Assembly (NCBI GenBank): GCA_040381235.1
Contig: JBEIHS010000013.1
Location: 1 to 28,202 of the forward strand
DNA: 28,202 nucleotides
Direction: 5' to 3'
Origin: Planctomycetaceae bacterium
GTDB lineage: Bacteria; Planctomycetota; Planctomycetia; Pirellulales; Pirellulaceae
Shown: positions 17,207-21,778 of the stretch, one piece after another
How positions within the stretch are numbered: the first letter of the stretch is position 1
Layout: every line of letters begins with the position of its first letter
Program-made: the position numbers and the translations under genes
The notes under the pieces: model-generated
Database searches by the model: none
What the model was told of the DNA's origin: nothing
The model's input: only the letters and a program-made list of their open reading frames with translations

Positions 17207-19065
17207 TGACCGCCCCGCTTATCGCCATCGCGGCGACTCCGGAACGCCAAGCGCTGCTGGACAGCGCCCTCGCCACTTGGTGCCAGACGCTCGGCGGGGG
17301 ATCGACCGGGCGACGCGTTGTCGTGGCTTGGCTGCCCGACGAGCCATCGCAGCTGCGGCAGCTAATGCAGCGCATGCGGGCGAGCGCCCCGCAGCACGTG
17401 CCGCTGCACGCGCCGTCCGGCGACGACGATTTCGCAGCGCGTCTGCAAGCTGGATTGCGAGCCGGATTGCCAGCCGGATCGGAGAGAGACTCGCGCCGTG
17501 ACGTGCGCCATGACTTGCCAAAAGACGCGCGAACAGACGTGCCAGTTGATGTGCCGACTGATGTGCCGACTGATGTGCCGACTGATGTGCCAACGGAGCG
17601 GCCGCGGGTTGTGCTGATCGGCTCGGCGCGTGCGTACGAGCACTCGGCGCGGGACCGTCTGGAAATGTCGCTTGTGGAAAGTCTCCGTGACGGTGCGGCG
17701 GCGGTGCGGTTGTTGCGTGTGGGCGAAGTGTTATCGGCCAAGTTTGGCTTGCCGCGGAGGTTCGCGCGGCGCGTGGCTTGGCGGTCGTTCGCTGTTTCGC
17801 AGCGCCAGGATTGCTTTCCGACGGCGGCCGAACTGATTGCGGCGGTGTCCAAGTTGCTTGCCGGCGAGGGTCCCTGGTTTCGCGAACAGGCGTTGCTGGG
17901 ACGACGTCGCACAGCCGGCGAAGCGCTGGAAGAGTACGTGCGCGAAGCGGCCGCTGGCGGCACATCCGTTCCCGAACGTCCGTTGTCCCGAGGCTTGGGG
18001 CGGCTATCGCGATGGTTTCGCGCGGGGCCGAAGGCGGCCGGCGCCACGACCGCGCATGCACCGCTTCAGCCTGCCGACACGCGACGGCTCCTTGCGCTTT
18101 GCGGCACGTTCAATCGACCCCACGTGGCGCTCGCGGGATTCAACACCGGCGTGAATCATTTCGGCTGGCGATATCCGGGCAAGACGGTCGTCCAGACCCT
18201 GCAAACCGGAAAACGCATCCGCGTCCGCGGCGCCATCCTGGAGGCTGACGCCGGCGTGCTGATCAAAGACGCCGTCGCCGCTTTGCGACAAGCGGGGTGT
18301 GAATTCCTCGTGCTGCCGAACTATTCCTACGTCAGCTTGGGAACCGTGTTCATGGTGCCGGTCCATGGCTCGGGCTGCGAAGTCTCGACGCTTGGGGAAA
18401 CGATCGTCAAGGCGTTGGTCTACGATCCGGCGACCGATCGGATTGTTCGCGTCCGTCGCGGCGACAGCCAGTTCGACCGCTGGATGTACAACCCGGAGAG
18501 CGGCGTGGTGGTGCTGCGGTTGTGGTTCCGCGTGCGGCCCCGCTTTCGCTATTTTCGGCAACAACGCACGCTCGCCGCGCCATCCGCCGCCGAGCTGTGG
18601 AATGCGTTTCGCGACCCCGATGCCAGCCATATCGAAGCTCGCAAGCAACGCGCGGCCGACCGGCACGTGAGCCTCTACCGCTATCGGCTTGACGCCGACG
18701 GACTCGGCGGACCGGCCGAGGAGCTGCCGCGGGACACAATCGGCCGGGTGTGGGACCGGATCGAGCGGAACCGAGTCGCCGCCACGCTGTTCCACGCCTT
18801 TGTCCGCAATTTTGGATTCCATGTCGAACTGTTTCTGAACGAGGCGGAATTCGCCCGGTTTTGGGAACATCATCGCGGTCTGCCGCTCGCGAAAATGCAG
18901 TTCCGGCTGGCGCGGCGCGATGGACTGCCCCACTCCCCCTGCGGCGATTGCGACCGCATGTCGATCGATCTGTTCATGAGTCGCCGGCGCAGCGCCCGGT
19001 TCCTCGCTTTCGTCAAGGAACATCTGCCCCATGCTCGATTCAACCGTGGCAAACACAGCATGTGA
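17206..19065 (+). CDS. Hypothetical 620-aa protein; the C-terminal half resembles a degenerate PCMH/VAO-type FAD-binding oxidase fold (GULO/ALO-like); the N-terminal half is unknown and carries a (DVPT)n repeat
   Basis: The ATG overlaps the psd stop (tgATGa, 17204-17208). LEADAGVLIKDAVAALRQAGCEFLVLPNYSYVSLGTVFMVPVHGSG followed by TLGETIVKALVYDPATDRIVRVRRGDSQFDRWMYNPESGVVVLRLWFRVRP aligns by eye to the EAG..L..L...GLA..NLGS....vaG...TgTHGtG / G.l...V..l.lv.adG core of FAD_binding_4 enzymes. The usual GxGHS motif is not recognisable. 12-bp repeats lie at 17536-17595. Confidence 0.6.
   Translation: MTAPLIAIAATPERQALLDSALATWCQTLGGGSTGRRVVVAWLPDEPSQLRQLMQRMRASAPQHVPLHAPSGDDDFAARLQAGLRAGLPAGSERDSRRDVRHDLPKDARTDVPVDVPTDVPTDVPTDVPTERPRVVLIGSARAYEHSARDRLEMSLVESLRDGAAAVRLLRVGEVLSAKFGLPRRFARRVAWRSFAVSQRQDCFPTAAELIAAVSKLLAGEGPWFREQALLGRRRTAGEALEEYVREAAAGGTSVPERPLSRGLGRLSRWFRAGPKAAGATTAHAPLQPADTRRLLALCGTFNRPHVALAGFNTGVNHFGWRYPGKTVVQTLQTGKRIRVRGAILEADAGVLIKDAVAALRQAGCEFLVLPNYSYVSLGTVFMVPVHGSGCEVSTLGETIVKALVYDPATDRIVRVRRGDSQFDRWMYNPESGVVVLRLWFRVRPRFRYFRQQRTLAAPSAAELWNAFRDPDASHIEARKQRAADRHVSLYRYRLDADGLGGPAEELPRDTIGRVWDRIERNRVAATLFHAFVRNFGFHVELFLNEAEFARFWEHHRGLPLAKMQFRLARRDGLPHSPCGDCDRMSIDLFMSRRRSARFLAFVKEHLPHARFNRGKHSM

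Positions 19066-21778: not shown

Follow-up and report, generated by a model that had tools for sequence, protein, structure and literature searches.

What is the first half of a planctomycete protein whose second half is a complete class-III aminotransferase? The protein, 915 amino acids (aa) long, is encoded on contig JBEIHS010000013.1 of a Planctomycetaceae bacterium (assembly GCA_040381235.1). We analyzed positions 1 to 28,202 of the forward strand of this contig, a stretch of 28,202 nucleotides that is called the window below. Class-III aminotransferases are regarded as obligate symmetric homodimers, and a natural fusion of two copies would be a system for testing what the partner subunit contributes. 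A first-pass annotation, made from the DNA letters alone, had described the gene as a dead aminotransferase copy followed in tandem by a live one. Profile searches, fold comparison, internal alignment and residue counts agreed with that description in outline. We consider it likely that the product is an asymmetric class-III aminotransferase in a single chain, and that a tandem duplication of a YgjG/PigE-like enzyme gave rise to it.

The open reading frame (ORF) was as annotated (positions 19031-21778, plus strand), and every motif listed for it was present in the stated order. The N-terminal part contained NSGEEA..KLAR (aa 171-185), DES (aa 413-415) and FHSTTYQPNALS (aa 444-455). The C-terminal part contained GHNPP (aa 541-545), SGASAVEHA (aa 582-590), GGFGGKT (aa 609-615), ELIQGVGG (aa 667-674), DEVQTGMYRTG (aa 700-710) and LGKGASD (aa 727-733). 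The start codon was backed by a conserved N-terminus of the homologues, M..S...T.C[DE]. A search of 5.8 billion proteins gave, among the matches listed, 120 homologues, nearly all of 680-780 aa. Their source names were 'class III aminotransferase' only, and the organisms were given as Pirellulales, Pirellula, Gemmataceae and Planctomycetaceae. For the column counts of this family, 118 of the 120 listed homologues were aligned, and the alignment showed a conserved two-part core. Coordinates are collected in Table 1.

Two modules derived from class-III aminotransferases

Module 2 was complete and catalytically equipped. The Pfam profile PF00202 matched aa 521-891 with an E-value of 1.8e-41 and 142.6 bits (cut-off 30.5), covering profile positions 22-402 of 403. 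NCBIfam agreed with Pfam in placing a full class-III domain in the C-terminal half, and sequence matches in the PDB were 1vef, 4ppm and 4uox. Lys729, Asp700, Gln703, Glu667 and Arg816 were all invariant in the family (118/118). Lys729 is predicted to form the Schiff base with pyridoxal 5'-phosphate (PLP), Asp700 to contact the pyridine N1, and the Gln/Glu pair (Gln703, Glu667) to contact O3'. The phosphate loop Ser582-Gly583 and the stacking aromatic Phe611 (Phe in 109 sequences, Tyr in 9) were aligned to those of 1vef, PigE and YgjG. The small-domain Arg of class-III enzymes, here Arg816, binds the alpha-carboxylate of the amino-acid or keto-acid co-substrate. Lys614 in FGGKT was also invariant, and it was aligned to Lys183 in 'FHGKS' of YgjG and to 'YHGKT' of PigE.

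YgjG and PigE (4UOX, 4PPM) were the closest known enzymes to module 2, with Foldseek E ~1e-22, a target TM-score (TMt) of ~0.8 and phmmer E-values of 1e-21 to 1e-26. Module 2 shares with them the PLP-binding residues, the Lys in F-x-G-K-(T/S) and an N-terminal helical extension. The Foldseek alignments to them ran over 447-470 columns for a C-module of 411 aa, reaching 40-60 columns upstream of the core into the helical linker. They differ from the protein described here in being homodimers with two equivalent sites that exchange Thr332* (YgjG numbering); here, a dead and truncated copy is fused upstream, and the corresponding Thr of the live copy is lost.

The N-terminal part is also aminotransferase-derived, beyond chance resemblance. 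Searched alone, the N-terminal half of the window protein matched PF00202 with E 6.6e-4 (aa 136-198 on profile positions 58-120), and 25 of 29 homologous N-modules matched it individually (best E 1.6e-7). A profile of the 29 N-modules was compared with all PDB sequences. It matched 2eh6, an acetylornithine aminotransferase (AcOAT), with E 3.4e-6 (profile 40-221 on chain 78-262), and PigE 4ppm with E 7.8e-5 (profile 55-253 on chain 495-700). These matches were colinear over ~180-200 positions, and 28 of the 30 matches at E<=10 were class-III aminotransferases. The N-module alone was modeled using AlphaFold2, with a predicted local distance difference test score (pLDDT) of 87.7 and a predicted TM-score (pTM) of 0.89. 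In a Foldseek search of the PDB with this model, the best 50 matches were all class-III folds (E 5e-9 to 1e-6; query TM-score, TMq, 0.5-0.6). They included PigE (the best, E 5e-9) with YgjG close behind, glutamate-1-semialdehyde aminomutase, AcOAT, ornithine aminotransferase and omega-transaminases.

The two halves also matched each other. When this family and a sister subfamily (described below) were combined and both halves were restricted to their large-domain cores, hhalign aligned the N-core with the C-core over 195 columns (E 8e-7, Prob 84%), and the Glu in the N-core paired with the Lys in the C-core. For a full-length homologue, AlphaFold2 predicted strands and helices that can be matched between the two large domains in the same order, seven strands included.

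It could be argued that the first 470 residues have nothing to do with aminotransferases and that their motifs arose by chance in low-complexity, GC-rich sequence: the Pfam match is short (aa 136-198) and below threshold, a first hhalign comparison of N- and C-terminal regions was not significant, and ~40% of the N-terminal region of the window protein is low-complexity repeat. This explanation is refuted by the profile, fold and internal-repeat tests, which were all specific for class-III aminotransferases, and the conserved N-core is present in hundreds of sequences without repeats. We regard it as very improbable. Profile alignment of each half, the check named in the first-pass annotation, found that the N-terminal 470 aa are not unrelated and that only the C-terminal half keeps a PLP-binding Lys.

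Both modules are class-III-derived, as annotated; however, module 1 corresponds to the large PLP-binding domain only, and not to a whole fold. Its conserved core was ~285 aa, which four low-complexity stretches enlarge to ~450 aa in the window protein. The GHxxP/N-terminal beta-hairpin segment and the C-terminal small domain were absent from module 1: the PDB alignments ended at the HSTT loop, and the AlphaFold2 model contained only helices from there to the beta-hairpin of module 2. At its N-terminal end, module 1 has a conserved helix, IPNLLRLHLSPHVAQACYLL. A short shared motif suggests that this helix may be homologous to the helical 'VNP' extension at the N-terminus of YgjG/PigE-type enzymes, which it resembles.

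The cofactor-binding residues of module 1 were examined column by column. For the sister subfamily, columns were counted by hidden Markov model (HMM) alignment, and the denominators are the genomes in which the column was aligned, of 71. The segment DES had been annotated as the replacement of DEVQTG. This was wrong, as PDIVVFDES paired with PD(I/L)xxL(A/G/S)K(A/G) in every alignment, putting Glu414 at the position of the Schiff-base Lys. This column contained Glu in 109, Asp in 8 and Gln in 1 of the 118 family members, and Glu in 67/67 of the sister subfamily. The absence of the Lys from module 1, which the annotation had stated, was thus found throughout (0/118 and 0/67). No relative with the Lys retained in the N-module was found among the 118 + 31 + 71 sequences in which it was sought. 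The position of the DEVQTG Asp was Val315 in the window protein and Cys in most homologues. The segment FLANSGEEALSGALKLAR, a remnant of the SG(T/S)EA phosphate-loop helix, was aligned to 'FFANSGTESVEAAIKLAR' of 2eh6, and its phosphate-binding Thr/Ser was replaced by Glu/Asp. Because the Lys was replaced by Glu, the N1 Asp by Val or Cys and the phosphate-loop Thr by Glu or Asp, module 1 is, judged by its residues, cofactor-dead.

These losses bear on whether both halves are active, as in a bifunctional enzyme with two PLP sites. Two fold-type-I large domains do exist in the chain. Nevertheless, module 1 lacks the Lys (0/118), the N1 Asp, the phosphate-binding Thr/Ser and a small domain, and in the window protein a 70-aa low-complexity insert interrupts its active-site loop. 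We give this possibility practically no credence.

Proposed packing of the modules and predicted single active site

One element of the active site was kept in module 1. Its loop F-H-S-T-T-(Y/F)-Q-P-N, the equivalent of H(G/S)(S/T)T(Y/F)GGN, was invariant (118/118) and was aligned to 'VHSSTYGGG' of PigE. In YgjG, whose active site is located at the dimer interface, one subunit binds the PLP phosphate through its own Gly150 and Thr151, and the other subunit contributes Thr332 (PMC4244111). In module 2, the equivalent segment (aa 760-770) had no conserved Thr among the 118 sequences or the 71 sister-subfamily genomes. The first-pass annotation had called this segment degenerate, which held for the family as a whole; the window protein itself has Thr763, which phmmer aligned to Thr332 of YgjG. 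Retention of the Thr loop in module 1 together with its loss from module 2 is expected if module 1 replaces the partner subunit. As a pattern in the sequences, it would be hard to explain if the C-modules still homodimerised.

The compact homologue P0008, which is 53% identical to the window protein, was modeled at full length with a pLDDT of 90.9 and a pTM of 0.93; the relative placement of its two modules is thus predicted with confidence. In a Foldseek search of the PDB, the full-length model matched YgjG, PigE and AcOAT through its C-terminal half only, and GcvP was not among the best 50 matches; the chains of homodimers are deposited there as single modules, so that packing cannot be addressed by this comparison. 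Among predicted viral structures, a two-module protein of 867 aa (G8DFQ7) was matched weakly over 842 columns (TMq 0.54, root-mean-square deviation 16 Å). Other viral fold-type-I matches covered ~340-510 columns with a TMq of 0.23-0.40. G8DFQ7 may be the coccolithovirus single-chain serine palmitoyltransferase.

The N-terminal domain could instead have an accessory role (in docking, in regulation, or in binding a membrane or a partner protein), and the C-modules of two chains would then homodimerise to form two active sites. In favor of this, class-III enzymes are canonically homodimeric (PMC4244111), the invariant Glu that replaces the Lys hints that the dead pocket has some function, for example in sensing a ligand, and Thr763 of the window protein could in principle act in trans between C-modules. 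However, the trans-Thr loop that such a homodimer needs was lost from module 2, yet it was invariant in module 1 (118/118; 67/69 in the sister subfamily), a module that itself lacks a cofactor site. In addition, the most conserved parts of module 1 appear to be the elements that line the canonical dimer interface, and the pTM of 0.93 points to a fixed, intimate arrangement of the modules. We consider an accessory role rather unlikely.

Several observations weigh against a single-chain pseudo-dimer. The PF00202 scores of the N-module were below the gathering cut-off of 30.5, with 18.9 bits for the window protein and 24.1 bits for a compact homologue. An hhalign comparison of the whole N-region with the whole C-region, using the planctomycete family only, was in the wrong register and not significant (E 0.14). 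The alignment of Thr763 to Thr332 of YgjG would allow a trans contact from module 2, although residues at this column vary across the family (Arg in 56/118). The Glu at the dead Lys position is, by its conservation, too constant for simple neutral decay, and the pseudo-dimer model does not explain it; Glu414 may fill the vacant cofactor pocket or serve some other purpose. The position of module 1 in the place of subunit B is one that we infer from the Thr-loop complementarity, the pTM of 0.93 and the weak viral match, and that match has a root-mean-square deviation of 16 Å. Finally, no characterised homologue was found.

On balance, we favor the single-chain asymmetric enzyme. The hard-wired dimer with one site that the first-pass annotation had put forward is argued for by the complementary loss and retention of the Thr loop; its canonical-dimer packing we infer, and the idea itself is not new for fold-type-I PLP enzymes. 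In the mechanism that we propose, tandem duplication of a YgjG/PigE-like enzyme would have put two copies in one chain. The C-terminal copy would bind PLP via Lys729, Asp700, Gln703, Glu667, Phe611 and the Ser582-Gly583 loop. The N-terminal copy would have dropped its N-terminal segment, its small domain and all cofactor-binding residues, keeping the HSTT loop and the interface helix. It would fold back on the live module, at the place of the second subunit in a normal homodimer, and donate Thr447/Thr448 to the PLP phosphate, giving one composite active site per chain. Transamination would be ping-pong: an amino acid donor held by Arg816 would load pyridoxamine 5'-phosphate, and the amino group would then pass to a carboxylate-free aldehyde or ketone. 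For biocatalysis, such a fused enzyme would offer a template on which monomeric omega-transaminases could be engineered.

Distribution and known relatives

With the N-module profile as query, an exhaustive HMM search gave 300 clusters (50% identity) at E<=1e-3. The second tier of matches was the sister subfamily, with proteins of ~700 aa. Its N-module has GE(S/E)L where the Lys would be, and its loop, LHSSTYGGN, is nearer to the canonical motif. A scan of one genome per species located 71 sister loci in at least seven phyla. Many were in Streptomyces, and others were in Micromonospora, Nocardia, Mycobacterium, Pseudonocardiaceae, Frankia, Methylococcales, Thiotrichales, Rickettsiales, Chlamydiae, Bacteroidales, Aminicenantes, one cyanobacterium and one Pirellulaceae. 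HMM alignment of the sister subfamily gave the same dead/live pattern, with Glu at the dead position in 67/67, the trans Thr in 67/69 and the live Lys in 69/70 genomes. We conclude that this architecture is old and maintained by selection.

The conserved core was common to hundreds of repeat-free sequences, and a gene-fusion or assembly artefact was ruled out by conservation of the architecture in hundreds of independent genomes. No split two-gene form, comparable to the alpha/beta P-protein, was found among the matches, and short matches to the N-module only were fragments. Two candidates for a split form were rejected: P0121 was a contig-edge fragment, and P0131 lay on a frameshift-ridden long-read contig. 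On the latter 1.8-Mb contig (locus L078, 1-8984), both a GMC oxidoreductase gene and the tandem aminotransferase gene were broken into short called genes, probably by frameshift errors.

Literature searches for pseudo-dimeric or tandem aminotransferases found no such architecture described in class III, and the first-pass annotation likewise knew of no example. The principle of an asymmetric single chain is known from the P-protein of glycine decarboxylase; for class-III aminotransferases it appears to be undescribed. According to PMC7259800, GcvP/GLDC has two homologous halves, with Gln in place of Lys in the N-terminal half and Lys in the C-terminal half, and its alpha and beta subunits are separate in some bacteria and archaea. 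The same paper describes GLDC as the unusual member among otherwise homodimeric fold-type-I enzymes. Like GcvP, the protein described here has fold-type-I halves in one chain, the dead one first and the live one second. Unlike GcvP, a decarboxylase, it belongs to another family with another reaction, PF00202 being the only Pfam family at E<=1, and its dead half is a large domain only, whereas both halves of GcvP are full-size.

In serine palmitoyltransferase, the Lys-less and Lys-bearing fold-type-I subunits LCB1 and LCB2 form one active site, and coccolithoviruses have a single-chain form. The viral fusion has the opposite domain order, and serine palmitoyltransferase belongs to the alpha-oxoamine synthase family, not to class III. 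The complementary decay of the two modules would be a record of the change from a homodimer to an asymmetric pseudo-heterodimer, in a third family beside glycine decarboxylase and serine palmitoyltransferase.

Class-III transaminases (TA) fused to a second domain are known from TamH (TA-TR) and PigE (TR-TA), TR being a thioester reductase. They use aldehydes released from thioesters, according to PMC9594044 and PMC8341465; in the latter, the N-terminal domain of PigE is a thioester reductase. The sister subfamily occurs in similar contexts, with reductases of nonribosomal peptide synthetases (NRPS) and polyketide synthases (PKS). The difference is that the partner domain in TamH and PigE is an active reductase, and here it is the remnant of a degenerate aminotransferase copy.

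Gene neighborhood, putative substrate and repeats

Table 1. Features of the tandem aminotransferase gene and its neighbors (positions in the window).
Feature	Position	Strand	Evidence or remark
GMC oxidoreductase	14604-16241	+	Pfam/NCBIfam; same operon
Phosphatidylserine-decarboxylase-like protein	~16244-17206	+	NCBIfam phosphatidylserine decarboxylase above cut-off
510-620-aa protein without family	16951 or 17209 to 19065	+	Stop overlaps aminotransferase start by 35 nt
Whole gene, tandem (dead + live) class-III aminotransferase, 915 aa	19031..21778	+	ORF; 120 listed homologues with same two-module layout
N-terminal PLDT-repeat extension	19064..19197	+	In-frame 36/12-bp tandem DNA repeat (Tandem Repeats Finder, TRF)
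Conserved N-terminal helix of module 1	19196..19312	+	Conservation; AlphaFold2 helix
TAT-rich insert, at site of canonical beta-hairpin/GHxxP segment	19313..19525	+	9-bp repeat 19431-19516 (TRF)
Remnant of SG(T/S)EA phosphate-loop helix	19526..19588	+	Aligned to 2eh6; column counts
Arg/Ser-rich insert, surface loop of module 1	19760..19843	+	Gap in all compact homologues; no tandem repeat
ASQA-rich insert, ~70 aa, in loop matching QTGxGRTG active-site loop of live enzyme	20009..20218	+	12-bp repeat 20136-20217 (TRF)
DES, Glu414 at Schiff-base Lys position	20267..20275 (Glu414 20270-20272)	+	Aligned to 2eh6, PigE, module 2
FHSTTYQPN, retained loop	20360..20386	+	Invariant 118/118; aligned to PigE
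All-helical linker, N-terminal extension of module 2, contains LYSRSLARL	20396..20575	+	AlphaFold2 secondary structure; Foldseek alignment span
Module 2, class-III aminotransferase (aa ~516-915)	20576..21775	+	Pfam PF00202, PDB sequence matches, Foldseek
DEVQTG, Asp700 and Gln703	21128..21145	+	Invariant 118/118; aligned to DEIQTG of 1vef
Lys729, Schiff-base Lys of single predicted active site	21215..21217	+	Invariant 118/118; aligned to LAK/LSK Lys of 1vef, PigE, YgjG
Arg816, conserved small-domain Arg	21476..21478	+	Invariant 118/118; aligned to 'REVRG' of 1vef
Small membrane protein, 163 aa	22242..22733	+	160-191-aa counterpart after aminotransferase in L001-L003

The gene order of GMC oxidoreductase, phosphatidylserine-decarboxylase-like protein, 510-620-aa protein, aminotransferase and small membrane protein was kept in three further loci (L001-L003), from Pirellulales, Gemmataceae and Planctomycetaceae. 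A methyltransferase dependent on S-adenosylmethionine and a family-4 glycosyltransferase (GT4) flanked the cluster in all three, and a metallophosphoesterase was encoded in the window and at two of the three loci. In NCBIfam, the neighbors matched enzymes of lipid head groups best: phosphatidylserine decarboxylase above its cut-off and, weakly, an N-acetylglucosamine (GlcNAc)-phosphatidylglycerol synthase, the phospholipid N-methyltransferase PmtA and LpxH. The 510-620-aa protein upstream gave a weak match to FAD_binding_4 (E 5e-5) and a marginal PDB match to L-galactono-1,4-lactone dehydrogenase (E 0.35). The 163-aa membrane protein had no match in Pfam or NCBIfam.

The cluster has a lipid head-group flavor in the window (11206-17206 and 25997-26596), where LpxH-like, GT4 (similar to GlcNAc-phosphatidylglycerol or monoglucosyldiacylglycerol synthase), PmtA-like, GMC and phosphatidylserine-decarboxylase-like proteins are encoded. 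A gene for a CDP-alcohol phosphatidyltransferase is also near it. The cluster may be an uncharacterised amino-lipid pathway; literature searches on the planctomycete gene cluster found nothing relevant. Further upstream, a 1017-aa protein (5767-8820, plus strand) combined DUF7133, HEAT repeats and a cytochrome c domain; it is unrelated to the aminotransferase and agrees with the planctomycete origin to which the named homologues point.

A Lys in place of the carboxylate-binding Arg was linked to carboxylate-free amine or aldehyde substrates for YgjG (PMC4244111). As Lys614 is common to YgjG and PigE, which use carboxylate-free substrates, the window enzyme is a candidate aldehyde/ketone transaminase. 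With low confidence, we propose that its acceptor is an alcohol of a membrane-lipid head group that the GMC oxidoreductase of the same operon has oxidised.

Genes of the sister subfamily often neighbor NRPS or PKS genes. Those of Streptomyces viridochromogenes NRRL 3413 (L036, 7905-10184) and Methylobacter (L009, 7896-10148) adjoined an NRPS with a terminal thioester-reductase domain. A third sister gene (L004, 3985-6168) adjoined a large PKS with a phosphopantetheinyl transferase (PPTase). The sister-subfamily substrate is probably an aldehyde released by the terminal reductases of NRPS/PKS. Both the Streptomyces and the Methylobacter loci also carry a second, canonical class-III aminotransferase.

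A wider proposal combines these contexts, and we put it forward tentatively, as plausible but short of probable. The protein would represent an unrecognised, ancient and widespread architecture, found in lipid operons of Planctomycetota and in NRPS/PKS clusters of Actinomycetota, Pseudomonadota and others. Its members would be obligate one-site, single-chain transaminases whose active site was opened to bulky lipid-bound or carrier-derived aldehydes by loss of the partner's N-terminal segment and small domain. The Glu would be structural or allosteric, and the planctomycete enzymes would serve an amino-lipid head-group pathway. The database name 'class III aminotransferase' leaves at least 280 residues unexplained, and recognition of the N-module improves the annotation of the ~300 clusters at 50% identity. 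The N-module also flags the conserved planctomycete lipid operon and many NRPS/PKS clusters with an amine-forming step, probably catalyzed by the tandem aminotransferase.

The window protein is 915 aa long because four lineage-specific low-complexity stretches were added (aa 1-48, ~95-165, ~244-271 and ~327-396), all absent from the ~700-aa homologues. The inserts in module 1 had been noted in the first pass; of the four stretches, three proved to be tandem DNA repeats and the Arg/Ser-rich one did not. The homologue P0002, which is 81% identical, has inserts at the same sites with different content, indicating that the repeats evolve fast. The upstream gene carries a PTDV low-complexity segment with an in-frame tandem repeat (17539-17604); overall, the repeat periods were 9-36 bp.

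Repeats were also present downstream. The stop codon of the aminotransferase gene lies within a GAGTAGG repeat (4.6 copies, 21766-21797). The spacer between this gene and that of the small membrane protein was ~460 bp in the window and -3 to 56 bp at the loci L001-L003; in the window it contains arrays of CAACCCG-like units of 7/14/21 bp (22075-22224). A perfect 13-bp repeat of 4.8 copies follows the membrane-protein gene (22738-22800).

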